From positions 5,062 to 69,061 of IMG/VR virus record IMGVR_UViG_3300010965_000258: 64,000 bases of DNA; one strand, given 5' to 3'. Position 1 is the first letter of the stretch. Each line of letters begins with the position of its first letter. The DNA is from a virus (Duplodnaviria; Caudoviricetes). The notes below the pieces were generated by a model that searched no databases, had not been told where the DNA came from, and saw only the letters and a list, made by a program, of their open reading frames with translations. The position numbers and the translations under genes were made by a program. This document shows, piece after piece, positions 34,347-58,175 of this stretch.

Positions 34347-36083
34347 TTATCTACTTTGTATTATTTCCCAGGTATTATTGAACACCTTCGTGCCAGATTC
34401 TGAAATGGACAATATCTCTGGGTCTGCCAAGTTGGATGGGAAAGAGGTATATAGATTGTAATGAGTTGATACATAAGCCTGAGTAAGAGTGTATTCGTAT
34501 AAAGCTATATTAGAATATAGGGCTTCTGGACCAGCTCCAATGCTGATATCTCCCGATATTGCAGATGTAAAATTTACTACTACATAATGAAGTTGATTTA
34601 AATTAGAAAAGAGCGCCGAAGCCGTATTTATTGAGGATCTATCTATTCCGTTTACATATATGGAGTCAATATTATTTTTTGATATTGTTCCACCCGCATT
34701 CCAAGATAGGCTAGCAGAGTCATTAGATATCAGCTGGTTTGCGCCATTTGAAGTTGGTGTATAAAAAAATTCTACTGATTTTATTGATTTAGAGTTTTCT
34801 ACTTTAAATCCATTTGATGACTGAGTTCTTAACCCATTGTAGTAGTTGTGAGAAAGAATATTATGTACTTCGGTGCCCACGCTATATACTTCATTTATTT
34901 TAGAAATCTTGTCCCCAAAATTATAAGATGGTAATGAGCTTCCATTATAAATAGATAAATTAAAATATTCTAATTTAGGCAAGAATTTTGATGTGTCAAA
35001 ACTGCTAAATACTATTTTAATATACAAGACCCCACTTAGATCCAATGAGGTTGAATTATATTGAGGTATTTCTTTTCCGTTTGTACATTGAGACCAGCTG
35101 ATATTATCTAGACTCGTATAAACTAGGATACCGTTTTCGCCAGACCATTCAACTTTAGAAATAACTGGCATTTGATTTAAATGTGTTAATGGGATAACTG
35201 TATAATCATATATCTCTATGTCTTTGGACTGCCCAATTGATTCTTGTGCCATCTGTAAGGATTTTTCAACTTGATTATACTGCAAACTAGAATTTATAAA
35301 ATCATATAGATTTTTGTTTTTAGGGTATCCGTATTCAAATACTTCTTTTAGATCATTCATATCTGGCATAAATAATGTTCCGCCATCTGGGCTAACTATC
35401 TGTATAGGCGATATTGTCTTTAATAAATTAAAATGATTTAGTATGCTTTCTTGAGAAAGTGCGTATCTGTAAACTGCTGGAGCGTCTATTAAAAATGAAT
35501 CCGAAGAGTTGAGAGTTGGACCAGAAGAAAATGATATAGATGTATTTGTAAATACAAAATTGTCTAGTATTTTTGATGCAAGTAAGGTCCCGTCAACATA
35601 AATACATATAACCTGCTGCGAATAAGTTACTACTAAATGCATTGATTTTTTTATATTTTTAGGTGTGCAGTAAAGCTTTGTATTTTGTAAAGAAAATAGG
35701 ATTGAACCATTTTCCCAATATATACCTATTTTATTGGTATTGTCCGCAAATATTGGTGTTGCACTTGAAGTTGATATATATGACTTAAATAAAAGTTCTA
35801 TTGAAAAATCATTATCTGAATAATATTTTGTAGCAAGCCCGCCTTTTTCAGTAGACCCTATATAATTTTTTGTTATAGGAAGTGTTAAATAGTTTACAGT
35901 ATTAATAAGGGTTGAATATAGGCCACCAGGACACATAGGCAAAATTTTAGAAAATATATTATTTGCTGGGTAGGATCCGTTATTACCACACCCTGAGCTA
36001 TCGTAAGCAATGGTGCCAGAAGTTTCATCCAATGGCCAATAGCCAATTGGATTATCATTCATGACATTCATAGAGTAAGACAT
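34347..36083 (-). CDS. LamG/concanavalin-A-like lectin domain virion protein
   Basis: DNPIGYWPLDE...AYDSSG N-terminus and HLVVTY...IYVDG LamG motifs; a second degenerate LamG at the C-terminus. Confidence 0.8.
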   Translation of the reverse strand: MSYSMNVMNDNPIGYWPLDETSGTIAYDSSGCGNNGSYPANNIFSKILPMCPGGLYSTLINTVNYLTLPITKNYIGSTEKGGLATKYYSDNDFSIELLFKSYISTSSATPIFADNTNKIGIYWENGSILFSLQNTKLYCTPKNIKKSMHLVVTYSQQVICIYVDGTLLASKILDNFVFTNTSISFSSGPTLNSSDSFLIDAPAVYRYALSQESILNHFNLLKTISPIQIVSPDGGTLFMPDMNDLKEVFEYGYPKNKNLYDFINSSLQYNQVEKSLQMAQESIGQSKDIEIYDYTVIPLTHLNQMPVISKVEWSGENGILVYTSLDNISWSQCTNGKEIPQYNSTSLDLSGVLYIKIVFSSFDTSKFLPKLEYFNLSIYNGSSLPSYNFGDKISKINEVYSVGTEVHNILSHNYYNGLRTQSSNGFKVENSKSIKSVEFFYTPTSNGANQLISNDSASLSWNAGGTISKNNIDSIYVNGIDRSSINTASALFSNLNQLHYVVVNFTSAISGDISIGAGPEALYSNIALYEYTLTQAYVSTHYNLYTSFPSNLADPEILSISESGTKVFNNTWEIIQSR

Positions 36084-36100
36084 ATTTTTATTATACCCTA

Positions 36101-36736
36101 TTAAAGATCTTCAACTAAATATACAAAGCTGCACATGTATTTATGACCAGATTTTATTGCTTTTACTGTGTGTTCGTATGGGGTATGTGAAGGGAACATG
36201 AGAATGCTACCAGCCTCTGGTTTTAAAGAAATTCCAAAGTTATCAAATACAACCTCTCCGCCCTCATACTCATCGTTTAAATAAATTATTGCCGAAGCTG
36301 ATTTATTAAAATCACTGTCTGAGTCCACATGGGTGCCCATTCCTCCGTGCTGATTATACTTAGAGATTGTAAGTGGGGAAAATCTAAATGTATGTTTTAA
36401 ATTATTTTCTTTACAATAATACTTAGTAGCATCTTCTAAAGCATTTTCAATTATTTTAACAACCTCTAAACACTTCTCATCTTCTTCATTTTGAACCTTA
36501 TCCCATTTTTTATTTTTTGTTTTTTGAGATCCAATGCTTTTGGGATCTGTTTTATATGAAGTTTTATCTTCAGCATCTTCATTTAAATATGTTCCTCCCC
36601 ATCCATGCCATGGAGAAATAATAGTATTTGAATTTAATGAAGAGTTTGTGCTTTCAATAGTTTTTATAATTTCTTTAGGATTTTCTATAAGATTTTTAAT
36701 ATAGTAAATGTTGTTTGGCATCTTGATTATATCCAT
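36101..36736 (-). CDS. 2OG-Fe(II) oxygenase, prolyl-4-hydroxylase-like
   Basis: HVD...YLNDEYEGGE...H(TVKAIKSG)-x-K-Y. Confidence 0.9.
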   Translation of the reverse strand: MDIIKMPNNIYYIKNLIENPKEIIKTIESTNSSLNSNTIISPWHGWGGTYLNEDAEDKTSYKTDPKSIGSQKTKNKKWDKVQNEEDEKCLEVVKIIENALEDATKYYCKENNLKHTFRFSPLTISKYNQHGGMGTHVDSDSDFNKSASAIIYLNDEYEGGEVVFDNFGISLKPEAGSILMFPSHTPYEHTVKAIKSGHKYMCSFVYLVEDL

Positions 36737-37347
36737 GACAACTCCTTGTCTTTAAAATAAAATGCTAGGCTCATATATTTATTACCAGATAAAAGAACAT
36801 GAGATTCGTGATAATATGGTGCTGTCGATGGGAATATAATTAGACTACCTGCCTCTGGTTTTATTTTGATATCGTGATTTGGAAAACCAATTTCCCCACC
36901 CTCATAGTCATCGTTTAAATAAAAAACAATAGATATAGTAGACTGTGGCTTATTAGGATCTTCTTGATAATCTATGTGTGCCCCCATTGATTGTTTTTGG
37001 TTATATTTTTTTATATTAAACTCTGGTGACCTTCCTCCAGGCTCAATATTTAATAATTTAGAGTAGTGGTCTACGCAAGAATCGATTGAATTTTTTAAAA
37101 CATTTACTATAGAAGAACATCTTATATCAATATCTGTCTCGTTTAAAAAATTGTGCTCTATGCCATTTTTCCAAACTCCGTAAGGAGATGGATTTTCATC
37201 GCTTGAGTACCAAGTTTTCCATTTTGATATTTGTGAATTTTCTTGCAATAGGCTGTCAAGGTTTTCAATTTCTTGAATAAATGCAACGGGATTTTCTATT
37301 AAATTTTTGTACAAGATAATTCTTTTTTCAAGTACTTCGTGATTCAT
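36727..37347 (-). CDS. 2OG-Fe(II) oxygenase, prolyl-4-hydroxylase-like
   Basis: HID...YLNDDYEGGE...YHESHVLLSGNKY. Confidence 0.9.
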   Translation of the reverse strand: MNHEVLEKRIILYKNLIENPVAFIQEIENLDSLLQENSQISKWKTWYSSDENPSPYGVWKNGIEHNFLNETDIDIRCSSIVNVLKNSIDSCVDHYSKLLNIEPGGRSPEFNIKKYNQKQSMGAHIDYQEDPNKPQSTISIVFYLNDDYEGGEIGFPNHDIKIKPEAGSLIIFPSTAPYYHESHVLLSGNKYMSLAFYFKDKELSWI

Positions 37348-38060
37348 TATAGATCTTCTTTGCTTTTATATATAGGAATATTTCCTATTTCTTTTCCTTT
37401 ATCCCAAGCCTTATACATGTCATCTTGAAGTGCTCTAATCTCTGCAAGTTCTTTAGCCCAAGCTTCTTTTTGTTCCTCGCTGTAGACTGCATCTGCTCGA
37501 TCCCAGAATGATCCTATTGTATATCTTGTTCCGCTGTTTACTGTTGCAACTTCGTGTTCCATTCCAAATCCACCTGCAAAGACCGCAAGCATTCCAACCT
37601 TTGGTTCTATTGAAAGATCAAAATGCTTAAAGTTTAATTTACCACCAGTAAAATCTTCATTTAAATAAAGAAAAGCGGCATATCTACTTCTTTCAAATGG
37701 CGTTGGGTTTCCTTCTTCATCACAATTATCTGAGTGGAAGCTAGCAAAGGCTCCTTCTATCCATTTTTGTGCATGGTAGCTTATTTCAGAGACTTTAAAT
37801 CCTAGGCACTCTTCAACCTTTTCTCTAATTCTTACATTTAAATTTTTAAAATAATCTGCTGGTAATCCAAATGCTAATAGATTAATGTCTGTATCCCAGA
37901 ACCCCATAGCGTAAGATTCGTAAAAAGAAATCTGGTTCCATTTTAAATTTCCAGAATCTGCTAGAAACTCTAAATAAGCTATTACTTTTTTACACTCTTC
38001 TTCAGTCATAAATTCTAAGACAGAAAATGCATCATATCTATGTTTTTTAATTTTGCTCAT
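37347..38060 (-). CDS. 2OG-Fe(II) oxygenase, prolyl-4-hydroxylase-like
   Basis: HSD...YLNEDFTGG...EHEVATVNSGTRY. Confidence 0.9.
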   Translation of the reverse strand: MSKIKKHRYDAFSVLEFMTEEECKKVIAYLEFLADSGNLKWNQISFYESYAMGFWDTDINLLAFGLPADYFKNLNVRIREKVEECLGFKVSEISYHAQKWIEGAFASFHSDNCDEEGNPTPFERSRYAAFLYLNEDFTGGKLNFKHFDLSIEPKVGMLAVFAGGFGMEHEVATVNSGTRYTIGSFWDRADAVYSEEQKEAWAKELAEIRALQDDMYKAWDKGKEIGNIPIYKSKEDL

Positions 38061-38736
38061 CGTCTGTTCCTAGCTTTGTGATTGTCCAAAAGAATGGGCA
38101 TGTATATCTTGTTCCTTCTGTTACTTTATTTACCCCATGAATATAGTTTAGATCTCCTGGGAAAAAGTAAGCCCCTCTTGCTTTTGTTTTAAATGTTATA
38201 TTTTGTTTTGGAAAGAATAACTCCCCGCCAATATAGTCATCATTTAAGTAGAATACTGTTCCGATGTCATACCAAGGAAATTCATTTTCTGTACCAGCGT
38301 CTGGGCCCTCGTGAAGCTCTTTGTCTGCGTGTGGGAACTGCATCGTTCCAACTGGCCATCTAACTATCGCTGGTGAGGTAGGCCAAACTTCAACCTTAAA
38401 GAACTCTTCAATTACTGGCTTCATTCTTGCAATAACAAGATTTAAGATCTCTATAACTTTAGGGTCAGATTTTTCTAAAGTTTTTACAGTTGCTACTCTA
38501 TTTTCCCAAACTCTATGGTCATAGATAATGTTTCCATTTTCATTCCATTGAGATTCGGTTATATCCCAAAACTTATTATTCTTTGCAAAATTTAAAAGAT
38601 AATCCTGTTCTTCAAGTGTTATAAAGTCTTCAAGCTCTACTATATTTTCTGACTGCGCTCCGAAGTATCCAGAAGGGGTAATTGATTTTCTTGAAAACCT
38701 AACTCTTTCTGAGACGTCTTGATTCATATTTTGCAT
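38047..38736 (-). CDS. 2OG-Fe(II) oxygenase, prolyl-4-hydroxylase-like
   Basis: HAD...YLNDDYIGGE...IHGVNKVTEGTRY; start moved to MQNMNQ (AGGAG RBS). Confidence 0.9.
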   Translation of the reverse strand: MQNMNQDVSERVRFSRKSITPSGYFGAQSENIVELEDFITLEEQDYLLNFAKNNKFWDITESQWNENGNIIYDHRVWENRVATVKTLEKSDPKVIEILNLVIARMKPVIEEFFKVEVWPTSPAIVRWPVGTMQFPHADKELHEGPDAGTENEFPWYDIGTVFYLNDDYIGGELFFPKQNITFKTKARGAYFFPGDLNYIHGVNKVTEGTRYTCPFFWTITKLGTDDEQN

Positions 38737-38744
38737 TGTAGCTC

Positions 38745-39470
38745 CTATTCGTATTTCTTTCTTGACCATGTGTTCTTTTTGTAAGAACCACCATCTTTTG
38801 TTCTATAAAGTTCTGCCTGAGCATTGTGTCTTTTTATAATGTCACCATACTCGTAAAATTTAAAATCCATTTGCCAGTCTTCTCTTTTAAATGGAAGTAT
38901 CTGTAAATAGGGTGTGCCCGCTGGTAATACGCCCTCAAATCCATTCCTTAAGAAAAATGGAACAAGTCCTGGTGTATCCATCTTGTCATTATCTATTATA
39001 CCAGCAGTAGTTATAAATGGTAATTCAAATCTGTTTAACGGACTGACATACAATGCGCTGTACCCTTGAGGCAGCTGTGGGGCCCAGTTAGGATACCAAT
39101 GAAAATGAGAGCTACCATATCCCTCTGGTACCTGAAAATTTGGCATTGCGGGTCTTGATCCACAAAAATCTTCAAAGCCTAATTCTGTTTTAACGTCCAT
39201 TGTTCCATCTGCTTTTTTAAAAAATGTTAAATCGCATGGAGTTACATACAGATATCCTGATGTGAATAAATCTAGCATCGCTGGGCAAGCTTTAAATGAT
39301 AATAGCTTTCCTCCCTCATTATTTAAATAATACTCCCCAGTAGCCATATTTTTTTCATATCGATCTGCATTTGAATACCATTTTGGTACATAAGATTTAG
39401 CAACTACTGGTCTAAACTTTTCTGCAGTTTTATTGTATAGCCTATTGGCGTGGAATATTATTTTATTCAT
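38745..39470 (-). CDS. DUF6065-related hypothetical protein
   Basis: PKWY...KACPAMLDLFTSGY...GTPYLQILPFKRE; beta-rich family recognised from freshwater and marine phages. Confidence 0.65.
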   Translation of the reverse strand: MNKIIFHANRLYNKTAEKFRPVVAKSYVPKWYSNADRYEKNMATGEYYLNNEGGKLLSFKACPAMLDLFTSGYLYVTPCDLTFFKKADGTMDVKTELGFEDFCGSRPAMPNFQVPEGYGSSHFHWYPNWAPQLPQGYSALYVSPLNRFELPFITTAGIIDNDKMDTPGLVPFFLRNGFEGVLPAGTPYLQILPFKREDWQMDFKFYEYGDIIKRHNAQAELYRTKDGGSYKKNTWSRKKYE

Positions 39471-40176
39471 TTTTGTCTCCTATTTGTTTTGTCCTAAGTC
39501 TAATTGATTTAACTTCATGTTCCCCAATTTTTTTCCCAAAAGGATCAACACCATCTCTATAAAAATTTGTCCATCCGCCCTCATCAACTGTTTCTTTTAC
39601 AATTTGTAAATGGTCTTGCTCTGTGTAGTCTACAACCTTTAATATTTCTGGGCCAGAGAACTGCATTTTTGAATTCTGAAGTTCTGACAAGGATATTGGT
39701 AGCAATGATATAAATGGCTGGTTTGCTTTTATTGTTATTATTTTATTTGGTACGGTAACTCTCCATGCACAAGGCAAATCCCCGCTAAAAAATGAGGTAC
39801 TAATAATTGTTGTAAATGCCTGTGCTCCTTCCCAAAACATGTTTGGTACTGGCATTTGTAGCAGACTAGTGGATGAATCTGTTTTAAATATTAGGCCTGT
39901 TTTAAAACTTATGGTTGCATTTGCTCTTTCTGTAAAGCAATACTTTTCTCCCTCAAGTATTCTTACGTGCGAGCCAGATGTGTCAGAGATTCCGTCCCAT
40001 ACAAAAGATATGTCTTCTGGGAAAGACAGGCCCCAGCCTAAAGAATTTGTTAATGTTACTGGAAAACACCTGTATGCATGTGCATCCACTGTTTCATCCA
40101 TCCATGATCTTTTAACTGGAAGCTGGGATAAATTGGCTGCATTTTCACTGCTTTTATAAACTTTAATTTCTTTCAT
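39463..40176 (-). CDS. DUF6065-like protein
   Basis: KRSWMD...HAYRCFPVTLTNSLGW signature. Confidence 0.75.
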   Translation of the reverse strand: MKEIKVYKSSENAANLSQLPVKRSWMDETVDAHAYRCFPVTLTNSLGWGLSFPEDISFVWDGISDTSGSHVRILEGEKYCFTERANATISFKTGLIFKTDSSTSLLQMPVPNMFWEGAQAFTTIISTSFFSGDLPCAWRVTVPNKIITIKANQPFISLLPISLSELQNSKMQFSGPEILKVVDYTEQDHLQIVKETVDEGGWTNFYRDGVDPFGKKIGEHEVKSIRLRTKQIGDKNE

Positions 40177-40876
40177 TATTATTTTCCTTAATATTAAAAA
40201 TAATTTTTTTTACTTCGTGTTCGCCAATTTTATTCCCATTATGGTCAGTTGCATTTCTATAAAACCCAGTCCATTTTCCAGAAAAAATAATCTCTTTTTT
40301 CTTTTTATCATATTCATTCATATCAAACAAAGATGCCATTTTGCTTGAAGGGGCCTCAATAATTAAATTTGAGTTATTCATTTCAGATAAAGATATTGGT
40401 ATTATTGAAAACAGTACCGTTCCAGCTTTAATAGTAATTAATTCATTTGGTTTTGTTATCTTAAAAACACAAGGCATTTGTCCTGGAAAGAATGAGGAAC
40501 TAATGATGGTTGTAAATGGTGAAAGCCCATCTACAAATTCATTTGGCGCACCCATTGTAAGCAGACTTACATTTTTTTCTGTCTTGAAAACAATACCAGT
40601 ATTTAAACTTATTGTTGCATTAGATCTATCTAATGAGATGTACTTCTCTCCAGAAATTATTTTAATGTGACTTTGGTTTGGGGAGGTTATTCCATCCCAT
40701 ATAAAAGATATGTCTTCTGGGAACGACACGCCCCATCCCAAAGAATTTGCTAGAGTGACTGGAAAACAGTGGTATGCATGTCCTTCATATGTTTCGTCCA
40801 TCCATGATCTTTTAAAAGATAATGGATAAATGTCTGCAACATGTTTTTCTATTGGGTATGCATGTACTGTATACAT
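40163..40876 (-). CDS. DUF6065-like protein (tandem paralog)
   Basis: KRSWMD...HAYHCFPVTLANSLGW; both paralogs are 237 aa and collinear. Confidence 0.75.
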   Translation of the reverse strand: MYTVHAYPIEKHVADIYPLSFKRSWMDETYEGHAYHCFPVTLANSLGWGVSFPEDISFIWDGITSPNQSHIKIISGEKYISLDRSNATISLNTGIVFKTEKNVSLLTMGAPNEFVDGLSPFTTIISSSFFPGQMPCVFKITKPNELITIKAGTVLFSIIPISLSEMNNSNLIIEAPSSKMASLFDMNEYDKKKKEIIFSGKWTGFYRNATDHNGNKIGEHEVKKIIFNIKENNNERN

Positions 40877-40891
40877 TAAAATATTTCTAGA

Positions 40892-41557
40892 TTACAGATA
40901 ATCTTTTGTATATCGTTTTTCTATTTCACGATAGTCGGGAGTATGTGGTGCTTCTAAATAATCTAGCATTGTAACTATTGAGTATTTAGTTCCAGATGTA
41001 ACTGGCATCGCTGCATGTGAGTAGATATATGCTGACGGGAAAAGATACAGGTCTCCAGCCTTTGGCTTAATCTTTAAGCCTAGTTTATCAAAAAATAGCT
41101 CTCCGCCTTCGTAGTCATCATTGATATATCCAACAGACGATAATACACAGATGTAAGAATATCCATGGTCAGAGTGAATATCAAAGTGCTGGTCTGGGCC
41201 GTACTTTACAAAATTAAATGACTCCCAATAGTTTAATGGAGCGAGCCCAAACATTCTTCTATAGTCTTCTACTGGCGTAAGTTGGGCTGCCTTTGCATCT
41301 TCCCAAATATTTTCAAGCTTAAGGGTAGCTTCACTTTTGCCAGTTGGGTCATCAACATTTTTTTTAATCTTAAAATCATAACAATCACGGTATTTTTTAT
41401 TTGTATCTCCATATCCAGTCATTGCTTGTTTCCACTGTAACTCAGAAGCATTTTCTGATAGTGTATCTTCAAGTCTATTTATGAGGTCCATTTCTTTTGT
41501 AAATACATTTCTATAGACTAGTATTCCTGGTGCTAGATATTCTGCATTTGGTAACAT
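40892..41557 (-). CDS. 2OG-Fe(II) oxygenase, prolyl-4-hydroxylase-like
   Basis: HSD...YINDDYEGGE...SHAAMPVTSGTKY; start moved to MLPNAE. Confidence 0.9.
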   Translation of the reverse strand: MLPNAEYLAPGILVYRNVFTKEMDLINRLEDTLSENASELQWKQAMTGYGDTNKKYRDCYDFKIKKNVDDPTGKSEATLKLENIWEDAKAAQLTPVEDYRRMFGLAPLNYWESFNFVKYGPDQHFDIHSDHGYSYICVLSSVGYINDDYEGGELFFDKLGLKIKPKAGDLYLFPSAYIYSHAAMPVTSGTKYSIVTMLDYLEAPHTPDYREIEKRYTKDYL

Positions 41558-41558
41558 T

Positions 41559-42179
41559 TTAATTTCCTTTATGATATTGATCATTATAATCTAGCATCGT
41601 GACTAGAGAATATTTGGTGCCGTTGGTTACTGGTAGGGCTGCATGTGAAAATAAATAAGTAGATGGGAATAGATAAAGGTCTCCCTTTTCTGGCTTAATC
41701 TTTAAATTAAAATTATTAAAGTATAGCTCTCCACCATCGTAGCTATCATTAAAATAACCTACTGCTGAAAGCGTACAGACATAAGAGTGGCCGTGATCAG
41801 AGTGTTCGGAAAAATGTTCATTTGGTCCGTATTTAATAAAATTAAATGCTTCCATATAATTCATTTGGATTTTATATTTATTTGAATACTCAGAGATTGG
41901 ATTAACCATTGCATCATAACAATCTTGCCAAATAGAATCGGCCTCAAGCCAATATTTATTTTTGTTTAAAATTGTTGGATCCTTTTTAATTTTAAAATCG
42001 TAGCAGTCACGATAATCTTTTTTTATTGACCTATAGTCTTCTGACGCTACGGAAGGCTTCCAAAAATATGAATTATTTTTGTCCTCTAGCAATGACTCAA
42101 GTCTATTTATTATATCAAGACTCTCTGGCAAGGCATTACGGTAGACCCATATGCCTTTTTCGATTTCGTATGAATTCAT
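41559..42179 (-). CDS. 2OG-Fe(II) oxygenase, prolyl-4-hydroxylase-like (close paralog of 40892-41557)
   Basis: HSD...YFNDSYDGGE...SHAALPVTNGTKY. Confidence 0.9.
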   Translation of the reverse strand: MNSYEIEKGIWVYRNALPESLDIINRLESLLEDKNNSYFWKPSVASEDYRSIKKDYRDCYDFKIKKDPTILNKNKYWLEADSIWQDCYDAMVNPISEYSNKYKIQMNYMEAFNFIKYGPNEHFSEHSDHGHSYVCTLSAVGYFNDSYDGGELYFNNFNLKIKPEKGDLYLFPSTYLFSHAALPVTNGTKYSLVTMLDYNDQYHKGN

Positions 42180-42237
42180 TTTGTTCCACTCTACTTATAG
42201 GTATATAATACCATAACCTTAAATAATATACAATATA

Positions 42238-43719
42238 TTATTCTGATATTTCTGTAGTGTTATCAAATGATAACGTTTTGTCAGTGAAATAGAACGGATG
42301 AGGATCTAGAATTAAGCTGTATACGTAAAACAGACCTTCTTGACTAGATATGGAATCAACATGGACAAATGTATTTTCTTTGTGTGACCATATTGCATCT
42401 CCTTCAACTATTTCTGAGGCTGTGACGAATTTTACGTCTTCCCCTCGAGCAATAACTAAGGCGTGTGATGATGTAAGATATTCTCCATTAATTATTAAGA
42501 TATCATTTTTTTGATGAATTTTTACTTCTGTGACAGTTGTGAATGCTTCTTCTGCATCACGTACATCTTGTGGCAAAAGATCAAGAGTCGATATATCTAA
42601 TGGCTTTGATTTATCTGCAAACATTTCTGTTATTGAAGGTATATTAATAGATTTTAATTTATCTCCAACAACTATATTTTCTGCTCTTGTCAATCCGTTT
42701 TCTGTTAGAACAAGAGTCTCTGGTCCGATTGAAAATGGTGGTGGCCCAAAAAATCTTGGTGGTGAGAAGAATACTGGTGGTGAGAAGAATACTGGCGGGC
42801 CGAAGAATACTGGTGGACCGAAGAATACTGGTGGACCAAAGAATACTGGCGGTGAGAAGAATCCTGGTGGGCTAAAGAATACTGGCGGACCAAAGAATAC
42901 TGGCGGGCTAAAGAACGCTGGTGGTGAGAAGAATACTGGCGGGCTAAAGAACGCTGGTGGTGAGAAGAATACTGGTGGGCTAAAGAACGCTGGTGGGCTA
43001 AAGAACGCTGGTGGGCTAAAGAAAGCTGGTGGGCTAAAGAAAGCTGGTGGTGAGAAGAAAGCTGGTGGTGAGAAGAAAGCTGGTGGACCAAAGAATACTG
43101 GTGGTGCAAAGAATGTTGTAACTGGGCCTACTCGACCTGCTAAACCTTCTCCATTTGCATTTGTTAAAAATACGTCATAGCTCTGTGCTGTTCCTGGCTC
43201 ATTTGTAACATTTTGTGGACTTGCGCCAGATCCTGATTTTGTTGGACTGTCATTAACTGATGCATATCTTCTAGAGGTAATTGCTTTTCCTCCAGTATTT
43301 GCTTCAGCCCATGATAAAACGTCAATTCCATTAACAGAGGATGTTACAGACATTGAAGTAGGTATACCTGGAACTGTTGTTACAGTTGGTGAACTTGAAG
43401 CCTGTACAGCATTTGCTGAGGAATCATAATAAGAGTCATAGGATGAAACTGCATACGTATGAGTAGATCCTGGAGCTAAACCTTCAATAAGTACAGTATT
43501 TGTGCCATAAGCAACTGTTGCCTGCAGAACTCCTGCTTTATATACCTTATACCCTGTTGGGATATTAGATATATCTGTTGGGGCTGTCCAAGAAACTTGT
43601 ATGGCACCGCTTGCGTATGGACGACCTGTTCCTACATCTGTTGCTGTAACATTTGTTACTGGTTTTGGTCCCGTAAAGTTATCTTGAGCAGCTGCTCTTC
43701 TACCTATATTTTTTGACAT
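42238..43719 (-). CDS. FN3 domains + 21x FFxPPx repeat + C-terminal Hint (intein-like) domain
   Basis: N-terminal FN3 (IQVSWTAP...YKVY...LAPGSTHTYAVSS); Hint block A SIGPETLVLTENG...IVVGD, block B LTSSH, block F VYSLIL; GGAG RBS. Confidence 0.85.
   Translation of the reverse strand: MSKNIGRRAAAQDNFTGPKPVTNVTATDVGTGRPYASGAIQVSWTAPTDISNIPTGYKVYKAGVLQATVAYGTNTVLIEGLAPGSTHTYAVSSYDSYYDSSANAVQASSSPTVTTVPGIPTSMSVTSSVNGIDVLSWAEANTGGKAITSRRYASVNDSPTKSGSGASPQNVTNEPGTAQSYDVFLTNANGEGLAGRVGPVTTFFAPPVFFGPPAFFSPPAFFSPPAFFSPPAFFSPPAFFSPPAFFSPPVFFSPPAFFSPPVFFSPPAFFSPPVFFGPPVFFSPPGFFSPPVFFGPPVFFGPPVFFGPPVFFSPPVFFSPPRFFGPPPFSIGPETLVLTENGLTRAENIVVGDKLKSINIPSITEMFADKSKPLDISTLDLLPQDVRDAEEAFTTVTEVKIHQKNDILIINGEYLTSSHALVIARGEDVKFVTASEIVEGDAIWSHKENTFVHVDSISSQEGLFYVYSLILDPHPFYFTDKTLSFDNTTEISE
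42736..43113 (-). repeat. 21 tandem 18-bp coding repeats (FF[SGA]PP[AVGRP])
   Basis: 378 bp = 21 x 18 bp counted unit by unit; synonymous variation between units with the peptide conserved. Confidence 0.97.
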
Positions 43720-43739: not shown

Positions 43740-46205
43740 TTATGCTTTCAAATCTCCAGCTAACAACCAAGTTGTTGCTGCAATCTTTGTTATTGTTACT
43801 GATGAATTTGTTGTTCTTAATGTTTTTCCTGGTGTGGCTAATAGTGTTATTCCACTTTCAACAAAGTTTGCACCTGTTCCAGATGCCTGGTAGAAGGTTA
43901 TAGAAGAACCAATCGAATACTTTGCATTTCCTGTAGCTTCAAAAGTTATTGCTATTGCACCAGCAAGTGGCTGAATAGTATCCCGATTTGATGCTGATGT
44001 TCCAAGTTGATCAAGAGTACAACTTGTTGAAGTAGTTGGTCCAATTGCAGTTAAAGACGGAACGCCTGCTTTGTTTTGAACTCCATCTGTGAATTGTATG
44101 CCTGATGCTGAAACTGTTAGAGTTCCAGTAAATGTTGGTGAAGCAATTGGTGCCTTAGCTGCAAGACCGTTTGTGACAGTTGTTGCAAAGTTTGCGTCAT
44201 CACCAAGTGCTGCTGCAAGCTCATCAAGTGTGTTGAGTGCTGCTGGAGCTGATGCAATTACTGCGTTTACCTGTGCTGTTGCATCTGCAATTGCTTCTGA
44301 TTTAGCTGTAGCAATTGCTGTTGCCTGTGCTGTAGATACTGGCTTAGCTGAATCTGCTGTATTGTCAACATTTGCAAGTCCTACTGAAGACTTTGTAAGT
44401 GCTGCTACTGCAGTTGATACCTTTGTGTCTGCTGCTGTTCCTGCTGCTGCAATTGCTTCAGATTTTGCTGTAGCAACTGTTGTTGCTGTTGCAAGGACTG
44501 AGGTATCTGCAATGCCATGAACTGCAGTTGTGTCAGCGCTGTGTGAACCAATTGCTGAATTTCTATCAGTAACTTCGGTTCCAATTGCTGTGGCTATTGC
44601 AGATGCTGCTTGTCCATTTGCTGTAGAAATTGCATCTGCTTTTGCATCATCTACAAATGTGCGAGTTGCTAATACTGCTGTGTCTGGAGCAAAATTAAGT
44701 GTCCCCGCTGAGTCATTATAAGTCTTTGTTAATCCACTTGACACGCTGATCAGCGCATCAACACGATCATCTACTCTTTCATTTGTAAGATAAAGATTTG
44801 TTGTTCCTTCTGCTAAATTGTCTGTTGTTGAATCAGAAACACCATTTTCTGATGTTATAGTTAAACCATTTTTATCGCCTGTTATAACAATATTTGATTT
44901 AGTTGCTCCAGTCAAGAGACTTGCTGCAAATTCTTTAGTTGCAATCTCTGCAGTGTTAGCAATTCCGTGTACTGATGTAGTAACTGCTGCGTGGTTTGTA
45001 ATTGCAGTATTTCTGTCAGCAACTTCTGCATTAATTGAGCTTGTTATTGCTGTATTTCTATTTGATGTTTCAGTTGAAAGTGCTGCAGTTCTATTTGTTG
45101 TCTCAGTACCAACTGCAGCTGTAATTGCTGCATCTCTGTTTGTAACTTCAGTTGCAATTGAAGAGCTTATTGTTGAATCAACATAAATTTTTCTTGCTGC
45201 GTCATTGTCTGCCACAGGTGCCGCTAAGTTAGTTACCTTATTATCACCAAGCGATATGTTGCCAGACATGGTTCCGCCTGACAAAGATAGCTTTGTTCCA
45301 AGTGAATTAGTAACTGTTGTTGCAAATGAAGCGTCATTTCCTAATGCTGTTGCAAGTTCATTTAATGTGTTTAATGTACTTGGTGACGCTGAAACTAGAT
45401 CGGATACTGCTGTACTTACGGCATCTGTTGCAAAAGCTCTTGTTGCAATTACGGATGTATCTACAACTATTGTGTCTCCTGCGTCATTATAAGTAAGTCC
45501 AGATCCCATGATTGTGCCTACTGCATCTTGAGCTCTTTCATTTGTAAAGTATAAGTTAGTGCCTTCTGCAATATTTGTTGTACTAGCATTTGCTAGAGCA
45601 AATTTTCCATCTAGCTGTGTTTGAATATTTGAGCTTACATTGTCAAGGTATCCAATTTCTGTATCTGAAATATTTGCTACACGAGCTTGAATTGCTGATG
45701 TGTCTACAGAAACAGTTAGTGTGTTTGCTGCATCATCGTAACTCTTTGTAATTCCAGTTCCAGCGACCACTGAGTCGTTGATAGAATCTTGTGCTAGCTC
45801 TGCAATATCTGATATTAATGCTACAGTTCCGCTTGCATTTGGGAGTATAATTGTGCGGTCTGCTGTTGGGTCTGTTACAGATAATGTTGTTTCAAATGCA
45901 TTATTTGTCGTACCCTCAATAATTATAGATGATCCAGGAACCAAAAGGTTGCCAGATGGATCTAATGCTGCTACGCCGTCGGCAACATTTCTATCTGATA
46001 TCTCTACATACTGCGCTAAAGCATTTTGAAAACCTTGTTGGGTTTCATTTATTACAGGTAATGCGCTCCATGTGTTGACGGCATCGCCAACTCTAATTTG
46101 GGATGTATCTGTTTCATATCCCATTTCACCTGCTGCTAATACTGGATTAGCGGCTGTCCATTGAGCCGCTGTTCCTCTTCTTACTTGAATTCTTACTGTT
46201 GACAT
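43740..46205 (-). CDS. fibre protein with Mtd-N-like N-terminal domain
   Basis: RIQVRRGTAAQWTAANPVLAAGEMGYETDT; repeats of AEGTxNLYFTNER and LNTLxELAxALG; A/T-rich shaft. Confidence 0.8.
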   Translation of the reverse strand: MSTVRIQVRRGTAAQWTAANPVLAAGEMGYETDTSQIRVGDAVNTWSALPVINETQQGFQNALAQYVEISDRNVADGVAALDPSGNLLVPGSSIIIEGTTNNAFETTLSVTDPTADRTIILPNASGTVALISDIAELAQDSINDSVVAGTGITKSYDDAANTLTVSVDTSAIQARVANISDTEIGYLDNVSSNIQTQLDGKFALANASTTNIAEGTNLYFTNERAQDAVGTIMGSGLTYNDAGDTIVVDTSVIATRAFATDAVSTAVSDLVSASPSTLNTLNELATALGNDASFATTVTNSLGTKLSLSGGTMSGNISLGDNKVTNLAAPVADNDAARKIYVDSTISSSIATEVTNRDAAITAAVGTETTNRTAALSTETSNRNTAITSSINAEVADRNTAITNHAAVTTSVHGIANTAEIATKEFAASLLTGATKSNIVITGDKNGLTITSENGVSDSTTDNLAEGTTNLYLTNERVDDRVDALISVSSGLTKTYNDSAGTLNFAPDTAVLATRTFVDDAKADAISTANGQAASAIATAIGTEVTDRNSAIGSHSADTTAVHGIADTSVLATATTVATAKSEAIAAAGTAADTKVSTAVAALTKSSVGLANVDNTADSAKPVSTAQATAIATAKSEAIADATAQVNAVIASAPAALNTLDELAAALGDDANFATTVTNGLAAKAPIASPTFTGTLTVSASGIQFTDGVQNKAGVPSLTAIGPTTSTSCTLDQLGTSASNRDTIQPLAGAIAITFEATGNAKYSIGSSITFYQASGTGANFVESGITLLATPGKTLRTTNSSVTITKIAATTWLLAGDLKA

Positions 46206-53878: not shown

Positions 53879-54868
53879 CTATTCAAATTTTTTAAAAATA
53901 TGATCAAAAGCATTATTGGTTAACTGCAACCAGTTATACTCTTGATGAATTTTAGTTGACTGGGCATAGTAATATCCTGCATATGCATTAAAGTCTATTG
54001 CAACATCTCTCATTAATTCAATTAAATGTTGTCTGTCTGGCTCAAAAACTAATCCAGGCAAATTTAAAAACTGAGATTTAGTAAGACTTGATTTTAATCT
54101 TAGTGGTCCTAAAAATTTAGAATACTGAGCCCAACCATTAGTACAAATTGTTGGCATTCCAGTAGCCATTGCTTGAAGAGGAATAAATCCAAAACCCTCT
54201 CCATAGCTTGGATAAACAAGAACATCATGGTCATGATAAAGCTTTACAAGATCTTCTTCAGACATTTCATCTGTTATTATTTTTATGTTTTTATAAATTT
54301 GATCTGGTAATCCTACTATTGATTTATCGATATAGTTGTCATGAACCCTTGTTGTGTTATTTTTATGTGCTTTAATTGTTAAGGAATAATTTGGATTATT
54401 TCCATACAAGGAAATGAATACATCTACAACCATCTGTCCAGCTTTTCTTGGTGCAGGCTCTCCTACGTGTAAAAATTTTAGAACGTCTCCTTGTTTTCTA
54501 CGTCTTGGTTCCCATATTTTATCTATACCGTGAGGAAAAACTTTAATTGGTTTTTTAATACCTGCGTTTTCATAAACTTCAGCATTCCAATCAGATGTTG
54601 CCCAGTATTCATCAACCAAGTTCATGTGAGGCTTCCATGTTTCTGGTATTACAGTTGATTCCCAGGGAGTGTAACCAATTTGATATTGATTTTTATGCAT
54701 TTTAAATTGAAATGGTTGACAAAAATTTATTTGTACTGGTGGCTGAGGTGATCCGTAATAAACCTTATGTCCAAGTGCATTTAAGCTTTCTATGATATTA
54801 GAAGACGCATAACCATATCCTGTTGCTCTAGTTAAATTAACATTAGGCGTAAAAAATGATAAATTCAT
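53879..54868 (-). CDS. glycosyltransferase, GT-B fold (GT4-like)
   Basis: RKAG...DVLVYPSYGEGFGFIPLQAMATG; start moved to MNLSFF. Confidence 0.88.
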   Translation of the reverse strand: MNLSFFTPNVNLTRATGYGYASSNIIESLNALGHKVYYGSPQPPVQINFCQPFQFKMHKNQYQIGYTPWESTVIPETWKPHMNLVDEYWATSDWNAEVYENAGIKKPIKVFPHGIDKIWEPRRRKQGDVLKFLHVGEPAPRKAGQMVVDVFISLYGNNPNYSLTIKAHKNNTTRVHDNYIDKSIVGLPDQIYKNIKIITDEMSEEDLVKLYHDHDVLVYPSYGEGFGFIPLQAMATGMPTICTNGWAQYSKFLGPLRLKSSLTKSQFLNLPGLVFEPDRQHLIELMRDVAIDFNAYAGYYYAQSTKIHQEYNWLQLTNNAFDHIFKKFE

Positions 54869-54893
54869 GACTTTCTTTCTAGTCAACTGACTT

Positions 54894-54923
54894 GACAGTG
54901 GTTTATAATCAATGTTATGATTA
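54894..54923 (+). promoter_or_regulatory. sigma70/HrdB-type promoter TTGACA-N18-TATGAT
   Basis: Lies upstream of the SLT gene and its GAGGAGG RBS, divergent from the GT4 gene. Confidence 0.55.
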
Positions 54924-54954
54924 TAGTTCGTTATCTCTAGAGGAGGAAATGCCA

Positions 54955-55506
54955 ATGGAGAATATAAAACAGCAGTTTAGCAATTTAGTTCAAGAATGGA
55001 CTGTAATCATAATGGTAACATTATTTTTATTTCCTGTACAGCCAGCTAATGCGTTACCTGCAAAAACTTTGGTGAAAACTGAAGCCCAATTAAAGCAAGA
55101 AGTTTTAGATAGTTTTAGTAAAGAAATTTACAAACATTCTGAAATGCTTACAGACGAAAAGTTAAAACTATTACTTGAGACTGTAGGATTCGAAGGAGTG
55201 GGCCTTAAAAAAGCCTGGTCCATAGCAAAGCGTGAATCCAATGGAAGACCGCTTGCATATAACGGGAACAAGAATACAGGAGACAGCTCTTACGGTCTGT
55301 TTCAGATAAATATGATTGGGGATCTCGGTCCAACAAGACTTGAGAAATTTAATCTACAGAGTAACAAAGAGTTATTCGACCCAGTAACAAACGCAGAGAT
55401 AACGTACTATATGACCGATGGCGGCACGGATTGGTCGGCTTGGAAGGGTATGACCCCAAGGGCTAAGGAATGGCTTATGCAATTCCCTAACGATGTAAAG
55501 AAATAA
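54955..55506 (+). CDS. secreted lytic transglycosylase/lysozyme-like (SLT-type) protein
   Basis: Signal peptide (…ANA); AWSIAKRESNG...SYGLFQINM...LFDP..NA...WSAW. Confidence 0.85.
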   Translation: MENIKQQFSNLVQEWTVIIMVTLFLFPVQPANALPAKTLVKTEAQLKQEVLDSFSKEIYKHSEMLTDEKLKLLLETVGFEGVGLKKAWSIAKRESNGRPLAYNGNKNTGDSSYGLFQINMIGDLGPTRLEKFNLQSNKELFDPVTNAEITYYMTDGGTDWSAWKGMTPRAKEWLMQFPNDVKK

Positions 55507-57351: not shown

Positions 57352-57507
57352 ATGAGCCCAAGACATTTTTCAAAGGTAATGCACAGCCCTTATTTTCAAT
57401 CTGATCATTATAAGGAAGAATCTCCTGGCGGCATTTTAGAAACAAGAATTGAAAACTTTTTTAAAAAAATTTTTAAAAAGGAAAAACTAGAAAAGAAAAA
57501 ACAGTGA
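57352..57507 (+). CDS. small basic-tailed protein (leaderless)
   Basis: TATAAT-N6-ATG; MSPRHFSK...KKEKLEKKKQ. Confidence 0.6.
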   Translation: MSPRHFSKVMHSPYFQSDHYKEESPGGILETRIENFFKKIFKKEKLEKKKQ

Positions 57508-58175
57508 ATTCTCTTGTAAAAACTTTTGGATCTATAAACATAATTGAAGACTATATATCAAAAGATACATGTGATTTTTTAATTAATATTTACAACGACT
57601 CATTTACAGAAACTCCAAATAAAGGAATTTTAGGCGGACCATCTCAAGGTCTTGATTATGCTTGGACGGTTGGCCCAGGTTCACCATTTCCCCCATACTC
57701 AGCAAATAAAAATAAAAACATTGCCTCAGATCTGATAACCAATATAACAAACAGCATGGGTAGATCAATTTCTAACTTTTATTCTGAATCCGTAGACCTA
57801 AGAACAATATTTTTGAGTAAAATGATTACTGGTGCAAAGTTACAAGAGCATTATGATAACTATGAGCCTGGCGGAAAAGAATTTTATGCACATGGAACAG
57901 ATGCAGAAACAATTGATAAAATTGGATTTGAGTCAGACTGGTCAGCTCTTCTATATTTAAATGATGAATATCAAGGCGGAGAAATAGAGTTTCCGCAATA
58001 TGATTTAAAGTTAAAGCCCAAGCCAGGAACTTTTGTATTCTTTAAAGGAGATATGGACGCCTTACATTTTGTAAATGAAGTTACTGGCGGAAATAGAATT
58101 AATCTAATTACATTTTACTGGCGTACAGAATACATAAAACAATATTTTGAAACATTAGCCTCTAAGGGCATCTAA
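57504..58175 (+). CDS. 2OG-Fe(II) oxygenase, prolyl-4-hydroxylase-like (seventh copy)
   Basis: HYD...YLNDEYQGGE...LHFVNEVTGGNR; GTG start overlapping the upstream TGA. Confidence 0.88.
   Translation: MNSLVKTFGSINIIEDYISKDTCDFLINIYNDSFTETPNKGILGGPSQGLDYAWTVGPGSPFPPYSANKNKNIASDLITNITNSMGRSISNFYSESVDLRTIFLSKMITGAKLQEHYDNYEPGGKEFYAHGTDAETIDKIGFESDWSALLYLNDEYQGGEIEFPQYDLKLKPKPGTFVFFKGDMDALHFVNEVTGGNRINLITFYWRTEYIKQYFETLASKGI

Follow-up and report, generated by a model that had tools for sequence, protein, structure and literature searches.

Few unexplained accessory genes are as common in aquatic phages as those for Fe(II)- and 2-oxoglutarate (2OG)-dependent oxygenases, which are usually filed under generic auxiliary metabolic genes. 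In a eukaryotic virus, PBCV-1, the prolyl 4-hydroxylase (P4H) reportedly acts on that virus's proline-rich repeat proteins, a finding credited to Eriksson et al. in 1999. In phages, tandem arrays of dioxygenases were described by Iyer, Abhiman, de Souza and Aravind in 2010 (PMC2938197); the array of Syn9 is accompanied by a dUTPase-fold protein that carries a conserved cysteine, and a role in secondary metabolites was proposed. In the same paper, bacterial tail-collar or collagen-like proteins encoded beside hydroxylases, sulfotransferases and PAPS synthetases are the predicted substrates. Here, a cassette is described from a 64-kb stretch of DNA (the window), which makes up most of the 69-kb IMG/VR virus record IMGVR_UViG_3300010965_000258. 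In this cassette, the gene of an aromatic- and proline-rich repeat protein, termed REP, stands ahead of six 2OG-Fe(II) oxygenase genes (ox1 to ox6) and three genes related to DUF6065. The arrangement had been pointed out in an earlier note on this DNA, and the gene with FN3 domains, 21 FFxPPx units and a Hint domain, with the oxygenase array downstream of it, is indeed present where that note had placed it.

The cassette is read from the minus strand in the order Mtd_N fibre, REP, ox1, ox2, two DUF6065 genes, duf3, ox3 to ox6 and a LamG-type protein, beyond which come a 118-aa gene and then the portal gene. Its features, in window positions, are given below.

43740..46205, minus strand: Mtd_N fibre protein, 821 aa, with tail-fibre repeats (Pfam Mtd_N, 1.3e-14; many PHROG tail-fibre families)
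42238..43719, minus strand: REP, 493 aa, FN3 domains, (FFxPPx)21 and a Hint-type domain (closest Atlas clusters are viral fn3 proteins)
42736..43113, minus strand: repeat tract of REP, residues 203-328, 21 exact FFxPPx hexapeptides (unit list and codon table; TRF period 18)
42241..42732, minus strand: Hint/bacterial intein-like (BIL) domain of REP, residues 330-493 (family profile and alignment)
41559..42179, minus strand: ox1, 2OG-Fe(II) oxygenase of PF13640 (Pfam 6.6e-13; HSD...H...K)
40892..41584, minus strand: ox2, 2OG-Fe(II) oxygenase (Pfam 4.3e-12; best PDB match B. anthracis P4H, 2.6e-6)
40163..40876, minus strand: DUF6065 protein a, predicted dUTPase fold (PF19541, 6e-29; AlphaFold2 (AF2) model, pLDDT 87.7; dUTPase Z up to 10.5)
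39463..40176, minus strand: DUF6065 protein b (PF19541, 5.3e-29)
38745..39470, minus strand: duf3, a distant DUF6065 relative, phrog_7084 (PHROG 1.4e-30; hhalign against DUF6065, E 3.6e-5)
38047..38769, minus strand: ox3, 2OG-Fe(II) oxygenase, the most conserved member (62-98% identity across loci)
37347..38060, minus strand: ox4, 2OG-Fe(II) oxygenase (Pfam 8.2e-9)
36727..37347, minus strand: ox5, 2OG-Fe(II) oxygenase (Pfam 1e-12)
36101..36736, minus strand: ox6, 2OG-Fe(II) oxygenase (Pfam 1.4e-11)
34347..36083, minus strand: LamG/concanavalin-like protein closing the cassette (Pfam Laminin_G_3, 1.7e-9; tblastn against Circinus gp20, 3e-7)

Neighbouring genes overlap by 1-26 nt at 7 of the 10 cassette junctions, which indicates that the cassette is one operon. 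The fibre gene (43740-46205) is directly upstream of REP, with a gap of 20 nt, and such a fibre gene ('fib1') stands ahead of REP in nearly all related loci.

We propose, with belief and doubt about evenly balanced, that REP belongs to the fibre module, that the P4H-like enzymes encoded next to it hydroxylate its repeat together with their DUF6065 partners, and that its Hint domain is a self-removing cap. In such a scheme, newly made REP would consist of two FN3 domains, an aromatic/proline repeat of 126 residues and the C-terminal Hint domain. The co-transcribed oxygenases would hydroxylate the repeat, the Pro-Pro pair being the most likely target, and the paralogues are perhaps specialised for different positions or regiochemistries. 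The dUTPase-fold DUF6065 proteins and duf3 would act as partner subunits of the oxygenases. The Hint domain would undergo an N-to-O acyl shift at Phe329-Ser330 and would then be cut off, as a removable cap comparable to the Peptidase_S74 domain of a sister variant. The mature FN3-repeat protein, now ending in the repeat, would form a virion fibre or an appendage stalk.

The strongest evidence is the tight genomic linkage of repeat gene and enzymes. The expectation that the two travel together was borne out in both directions, over more than 250 related loci and in several layouts. With profiles of ox3 and duf3, 150 loci were collected from viral contigs, and in 120 of them the upstream flank was 2.5 kb or longer; every one of these (120/120) has a Pro/aromatic repeat gene no more than 4 kb upstream of the first cassette gene. 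Conversely, a DNA pattern of three and a half FFxPPx units, which holds no enzyme information, yielded 115 further loci, where an oxygenase is encoded within 3 kb downstream of 85 of the 95 repeat open reading frames (ORFs). After pooling and removal of redundancy, the same is true for 143 of 158 distinct repeat genes with flank. The exceptions in the repeat-seeded set are mostly second repeat-bearing proteins, either a large Ig-like fibre or proteins of 100-110 aa, and several of them are on loci with an oxygenase array further off. Bacterial and archaeal contigs, 596 Gb in all, gave just two true repeat genes, each on a contig of a metagenome-assembled genome and each adjoining ox2 and DUF6065 genes; the other 16 of the 18 pattern stretches there were false positives, off-frame or of low complexity. 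Further, the linkage persists through rearrangement. In one layout, a short REP is followed by an ox3 gene on the opposite strand and then by ox1 and DUF6065; in another, a sulfotransferase is inserted between REP and ox2. It is also kept where REP carries an S74 cap and where the repeat has changed from the hexapeptide FFxPPx to the tetrapeptide PP[FHY]F. The bidirectional linkage is thus about as strong as sequence data allow.

Several other genes enter the cassettes of relatives. Sulfotransfer_2 directly follows REP in some, and an AurF-like di-iron oxygenase is present in one layout (L173:1508-2212, minus strand; L189:9367-10473, plus strand). At the position of Sulfotransfer_2, about 10 other loci have an ORF of about 235 aa, and small genes of 160-200 aa between REP and ox2 belong to no family. 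In a sub-clade, a protein of about 366-367 aa with short GXY runs and Peptidase_S74 is encoded between the array and LamG (L029:12835-13935, plus strand); it is absent from the window.

Since the array sits among structural genes, its targets could also be sought there. That the hydroxylases mainly act on other virion proteins, namely the Mtd_N fibres, LamG or the collagen-like S74 fibre of relatives, seems unlikely to us, even though fibre genes and the LamG protein flank the array in nearly all loci, some relatives place the GXY/Peptidase_S74 fibre between array and LamG, and collagen lysyl hydroxylases are among the solved relatives of the enzymes. The window's fibres and LamG protein have no Pro-dense tract, and the collagen-like fibre is missing from the window as well as from many array-bearing loci. 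Moreover, it is REP that the rearranged layouts keep as the oxygenase neighbour; LamG is not seen there, while the fibre gene still precedes REP.

The tract of REP is the sole Pro-dense coding stretch of the 64-kb window, and the plus-strand ORFs over it are shadows of REP. The N-terminal FN3 region scores 21.4 bits against Pfam fn3, for which the cut-off is 25, and relatives pass that cut-off. Within the repeat, position 3 is Ser in 14 units, Gly in 6 and Ala in 1, and position 6 is Val in 10, Ala in 8, and Gly, Arg and Pro in 1 each. At the DNA level, the units are 79-83% identical (TRF), the Ser codons are split between TCA (7) and AGC (7), and the Phe and Pro codons vary too. It is thus the peptide and not the DNA that is conserved, and the selection on the peptide that had been deduced from this codon variation is upheld. 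A close relative (L008, 97% identical) likewise has 21 units, with substitutions, and a metatranscriptome contig of a close relative has 18 extra bases at window position 42766, i.e. exactly one hexapeptide unit.

Across the family, position 3 stays small (A712 > S586 > G305) and position 6 is mostly Gly, giving Pro-Pro-Gly. The repeat type itself varies, being either FFxPPx or PP[FHY]F, the latter with up to 37 units and, in the sub-clade that has it, without any Ser. The analogy to plant extensins drawn in the earlier note is therefore weak: Ser is found in 14 of the 21 window units, ranks behind Ala in the family (A > S > G) and is absent from the PP[FHY]F sub-clade. A collagen-like triple helix was also considered and is ruled out by the repeat period of 6 or 4 and the lack of Gly periodicity. 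Some REPs are short, with 100-150 aa and no FN3, and in relatives the same repeat also ends Ig-like proteins of 520-890 aa in the fibre block.

What follows the repeat is variable as well. A Hint domain is the commonest cap, and other REPs end in Peptidase_S74, in a Cys-rich tail or a few residues past the last repeat. In one variant (L174:9631-10284, minus strand), 11 FFxPPx units run directly into a Peptidase_S74 domain (Pfam 6.5e-10), with no Hint. Peptidase_S74 is familiar as a self-cleaving cap at the C-terminus of trimeric phage fibres. Finding it in the place of Hint is an argument for Hint, too, being an assembly cap that can be removed, and for a repeat that is part of a fibre. Release by Hint, as proposed earlier, is qualified by the domain being only one of several interchangeable caps. 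The Cys-rich ends, seen in tetrapeptide-type and some hexapeptide-type REPs (L112, L114, L144, L138 and L020), have 4-7 Cys per about 20 residues, e.g. ...CPCCCC... and ...CGYGC...; they might be disulfide knots tying chains together.

The assignment of the Hint domain comes from its relatives. The window's own C-terminal domain, an N-terminally truncated copy, has no Pfam Hint match. When a profile is built from 18 homologous C-terminal domains, its best solved match is the bacterial intein-like domain 2lwy (1e-7), with inteins next, and Pfam matches Hint_2 in 10 and Intein_splicing in 9 of the 18. Judged by this profile, the domain is of the Hint/BIL type at the family level, as the earlier reading of an autoprocessing domain had it. 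The putative nucleophile, Ser330, comes right after the last repeat residue, Phe329, and most relatives have Cys in the aligned column. The block B motif TxxH is present (TSSH, residues 416-419), and its His is missing in some relative sub-families. The domain ends in ...FDN487/T488, with Asn and Thr+1 in place and no penultimate His. Relatives end in HN followed by K or L (many), YNGC or FDS/FDA/FDM, and some have no Asn at all. Because this end is so variable, acyl shift and cleavage at the repeat-Hint junction is the only step open to all variants, and as most of them lack a +1 nucleophile, cleavage is expected and not splicing. In the window, the predicted cut would fall between Phe329 and Ser330.

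All six oxygenases have an HxD...H triad and a Lys or Arg ten residues past the second His, and the same holds for a seventh gene outside the cassette:

57504..58175, plus strand: ox7, PF13640 oxygenase with HYD...H...R intact, in a divergently transcribed region far from REP

For ox3, ox4 and ox7, the HxD was read by eye, as MAFFT misaligns the N-terminal halves. The intact triads noted earlier are therefore real, while the accompanying motif is Y[LFI]N[DE]x[YF]xGG and not strictly YLNxxYxGG. Against PF13640, five of the six score 36.7-49.9 bits, with a cut-off of 27; ox3 falls below it at 24.9 bits (26.7 bits in the genome search, where it rises above the cut-off only when neighbouring stretches of the frame are added). 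The closest solved relatives of ox1/ox2 and ox3 are the collagen-type P4H of B. anthracis (about 1e-6), LH3, P3H1 and PiuC, these four matched at E 1e-6 to 1e-2, along with PBCV-1 P4H and the mimivirus lysyl hydroxylase. Prolyl and lysyl hydroxylases being the nearest solved structures, the placement in a prolyl-hydroxylase-like subfamily is supported. Across loci, a cassette carries 5-9 distinct, divergent oxygenases, and it is the ox2 type that most constantly adjoins REP. A co-fold of ox2 with REP residues 197-256 and Fe(II) gave a score of 0.00, which, run without controls, speaks neither for nor against binding.

The second group of proteins of the cassette is formed by DUF6065 and its kin. 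Three DUF6065-like genes had been claimed; two of them, a and b, match PF19541 with about 101 bits each, above the gathering score, and the third, duf3, is a distant relative with no Pfam match. Its link to DUF6065 comes from hhalign (E 3.6e-5, probability 71.5%), from a PHROG that both share and from Atlas clusters in part assigned to PF19541. The AF2 model of DUF6065 (34 sequences, pLDDT 87.7) is predicted to have a dUTPase fold: the 13 best VIA matches, at Z 8.4-10.5, are dUTPases or viral proteins related to them, and dCTP deaminases come lower in the list. Cys37 is invariant in the 34 sequences and corresponds to the shared, invariant Cys62 of duf3. The duf3 profile showed no similarity to any chain among PDB sequences (HMMER); its GIIDxD and PYxQI strings, read by eye, recall dUTPase motifs III and IV. 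The duf3 family (phrog_7084) also occurs in 49 haloarchaeal tailed-virus records, and in the one context inspected, HRTV-7 gp38 (L014:7851-8741), the duf3 homologue adjoins thymidylate synthase and is near DNA polymerase. No paper on DUF6065 was found in the literature.

A first homologue search for DUF6065 gave close phage relatives only, and it was an exhaustive search, with 1547 cluster representatives, that reached fusions and bacterial contexts. Among ten long forms examined, five are fused to a PF13640 oxygenase with a YLNDDxxGGE-type motif, one to TPR repeats and one, next to an APS kinase gene, to a Stf0 sulfotransferase. One locus (L306) has a duf3-DUF6065-oxygenase triad. DUF6065 also occurs in a cluster of surface-glycan type, where a sulfotransferase and a GT41 glycosyltransferase accompany a PF13640 gene, and in two azole-peptide-type clusters, one with McbB/YcaO and one with an ABC transporter and nitroreductase. 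On the bacterial metagenome contigs L303 (4135-11410) and L304, the order is a 69-aa ORF, McbB, a nitroreductase-type gene, YcaO, a 229-aa gene, DUF6065, an ABC transporter and DUF6065, the 229-aa gene and DUF6065 overlapping by 4 nt. The 69-aa ORF is precursor-like, and its C-terminal part contains CASCGTGGPKPGP. In the 229-aa family, H, D, H and R are invariant. It has no PDB sequence match by profile, no Pfam match and no significant hhalign score against ox1/ox2, and it was seen as a 2OG oxygenase through an AF2 model and Foldseek only (pLDDT 83.5; 1.2e-9), its closest structures being the prolyl hydroxylases of P. putida and Dictyostelium, PBCV-1 P4H (5c5t) and PHD2. This cluster may thus make a hydroxylated linear azole-containing peptide. 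Taken together, the oxygenase fusions and the neighbour in the peptide cluster indicate that oxygenase and DUF6065 are a recurring two-part unit, found at least once within a peptide-tailoring cluster. At the level of sequence, the partnership is shown by the fusions.

Such clusters bring up the question whether REP is itself a precursor of a ribosomally synthesised and post-translationally modified peptide (RiPP), with cores that are tailored and cut to small bioactive peptides, Hint or other proteases releasing them. We consider this highly improbable. The RiPP-like layout suggested earlier is real in so far as a repeated core lies next to tailoring enzymes and DUF6065 recurs in the McbB/YcaO cluster and in the ABC-transporter/nitroreductase one. 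REP, however, is no leader-core precursor: it has 493 aa with folded FN3 domains and stands in a fibre block, and the other carriers of the repeat are the 520-890-aa Ig-like and the S74-capped proteins, which are hallmarks of structural fibres. Pfam and PHROG scans of the cassette found no leader peptide, RiPP recognition element, protease, or exporter/transporter, and Hint would cut at the end of the tract only.

The origin of the cassette can be followed through its carriers. The portal protein is 55% identical to the portals of Streptomyces siphoviruses of the Stanwilliamsviridae. The order glycosyltransferase, ribonucleotide reductase (RNR), endolysin, gp20, gp21, portal is common to the window and these phages, the window's LamG and 118-aa proteins being the homologues of gp20 and gp21 (the LamG one a distant homologue, as compared with Circinus). 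From RNR to tape measure, the order is the same as in Streptomyces phage Circinus, bar the inserted fibre-REP-oxygenase block. The INPHARED phages gave no DNA match for the 30-50 kb part of the window and no tblastn match for REP, while ox3 had weak cyanophage matches only and no close homologue in the cultured relatives. It follows that the Streptomyces relatives carry neither REP nor the array, and that the block is an addition in the lake clade. In our reading, the cassette is a late one and belongs to the fibre module of an uncultured lake phage, a relative of the Streptomyces siphoviruses, for which it would form a protein-tailoring system complete in itself. The glycosylation once envisaged for the repeat finds no specific support here, as the sole identified glycosyltransferase of the window belongs to the ancestral RNR neighbourhood, which cassette-free Streptomyces phages have as well:

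53879..54955: glycosyltransferase, adjoining the ribonucleotide reductase gene

The clade is abundant in lakes, with more than 250 loci retrieved, and runs from lake or freshwater metagenomes of four or more further studies (eight studies in total) contain the window or parts of it. Contigs of lake metatranscriptomes from three runs (two studies), 90-97% alike, span parts of the fibre genes, REP, ox1/ox2 and ox3/ox4. As these contigs are from relatives and DNA carry-over is possible, they are a weak hint and are not used as proof of expression. Elsewhere in the window, a 3488-aa ORF (14682-25148, minus strand) is found at the position of the tape measure gene, with the fibre block upstream of the portal, and a tRNA-Ile with anticodon TAT lies at 60797-60870 (minus strand).

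A number of points weigh against hydroxylation of REP. It is by inference that we make REP the substrate and prolyl hydroxylation the reaction, let Hint cleave and place the product in the virion. The likeness to solved P4Hs is limited, being confined to the catalytic core (E about 1e-6). Five to nine oxygenases exceed the needs of simple prolyl hydroxylation of a repeat of 4-6 residues. About 10% of the repeat genes have no oxygenase within 3 kb; most of these are second copies, carried by large fibre proteins. Every locus is from a single broad assemblage of phages, so the counts lack phylogenetic independence, and accessory genes could be gathering at a hot spot between fibre and portal. 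The last point leads to the alternative which we take most seriously, though it remains less probable to us than the hydroxylated fibre: the array would be an auxiliary pathway with a role in a small molecule or in a ribosomal or non-ribosomal peptide metabolite, in nucleotides or DNA, or in a host protein, and it would share with REP only the variable fibre-to-portal region. The dUTPase/dCTP-deaminase fold of DUF6065 points that way, as do relatives of DUF6065 and duf3 in DNA-replication and nucleotide modules with no repeat gene in view. Among them are DUF6065 relatives in phage replication modules (L299/L300 and L305), including one between ligase and DnaB/primase/PolA in a podovirus-like contig. 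Fold and contexts fit a nucleotide or small-molecule role, and the cyanophage arrays with their dUTPase-fold Cys protein were given a metabolite reading by Iyer et al. (2010). The enzymes are also many and divergent, an AurF-like di-iron oxygenase is found in some cassettes, and a structural neighbour, the P4H of P. putida, hydroxylates EF-Tu, a host-type protein (PDB title).

A neutral hot spot, however, does not predict the 120/120 and 143/158 pairing through inversions, insertions and a change of repeat period. Nor does it predict that the pair is kept in both matches from cellular contigs, or that both partners are absent together from the cultured relatives. The Pfam and PHROG scans of the window's cassette also found no peptide synthetase, halogenase or nucleotide-metabolism gene.

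A bolder reading joins these parts, and we regard it as rather unlikely as a whole: lake phages would carry a modular protein-tailoring system without a described counterpart. In its first part, two-component hydroxylases of a P4H-like oxygenase and a DUF6065 subunit, sometimes with a sulfotransferase or an AurF-like enzyme, would densely hydroxylate an aromatic-Pro polymer on virion appendages, and this polymer might be adhesive or rigid, in the manner of mussel foot proteins rich in hydroxyproline and DOPA. In the second, the Hint thioester would do more than shed a cap and would ligate the C-terminus of the polymer to another molecule, such as a virion protein or a component of the host envelope. 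In the third, bacterial RiPP clusters would use this same pair of oxygenase and DUF6065 as a tailoring module that has gone unrecognised. Literature searches turned up no paper on these repeats, none on phage virions containing hydroxyproline and none on phage fibres with a Hint cap; a mention of 'Hint' for phiCbK turned out to concern a terminase intein and not a fibre cap.

The cassette offers a specific and cheaply testable candidate substrate, a repeat peptide of six residues, with DUF6065 as a candidate partner subunit. If the hydroxylated fibre is true, phages would post-translationally hydroxylate their own appendages, DUF6065 would be assigned a function, and a new self-cleaving hydroxylated Pro/Phe polymer would be available for materials and protein engineering. 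When the arrays were reported in 2010, no protein was named as their substrate, and the repeat protein is the candidate added here.

Compared with the Syn9 array, the cassette shares the many distantly related phage 2OG dioxygenases and the dUTPase-fold protein with a conserved Cys. Syn9, in contrast, has JmjC-type enzymes, tryptophan halogenases and no proposed protein substrate, whereas the present cassette is without halogenases and has the repeat protein as a constant neighbour. The bacterial beta-hydroxylase/sulfotransferase operons resemble it in that a fibrous, non-enzymatic neighbour protein is the predicted substrate and sulfation comes next; some relatives of the window place Sulfotransfer_2 after REP, and the DUF6065-Stf0 fusion stands beside an APS kinase gene. 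They differ from the aromatic-Pro repeat with FN3 and Hint, from the PF13640 enzymes, from the phage setting and from the window's lack of a sulfotransferase.

The cap, too, has known counterparts. Like BIL and Hedgehog-type proteins, REP has a C-terminal Hint domain with a Cys/Ser nucleophile directly past the cargo; unlike them, its cargo is a fibre-module repeat protein of a phage, its cap is interchangeable with Peptidase_S74 or Cys-rich tails, and the window copy has Ser1, ...DN/T and no penultimate His. The Peptidase_S74 chaperone of endosialidases and tail fibres is likewise a self-cleaving C-terminal domain removed after assembly, and the REP of L174 has one; it occurs, however, only in a relative, and the window's Hint differs from it in fold and chemistry.

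A close parallel is offered by PBCV-1 P4H (vCPH, 5c5t) and the mimivirus lysyl hydroxylase L230 (6ax6), which are sequence relatives of ox1/ox2. There, as here, one virus encodes a P4H- or LH-type oxygenase together with repetitive Pro-rich proteins. In those cases, giant viruses of eukaryotes have one enzyme, with (PAPK)n or collagen GXY sequences as substrates, whereas the lake phage has 5-9 paralogues with dUTPase-fold partners, an aromatic-Pro repeat, a Hint cap and a strict adjacency of the genes.

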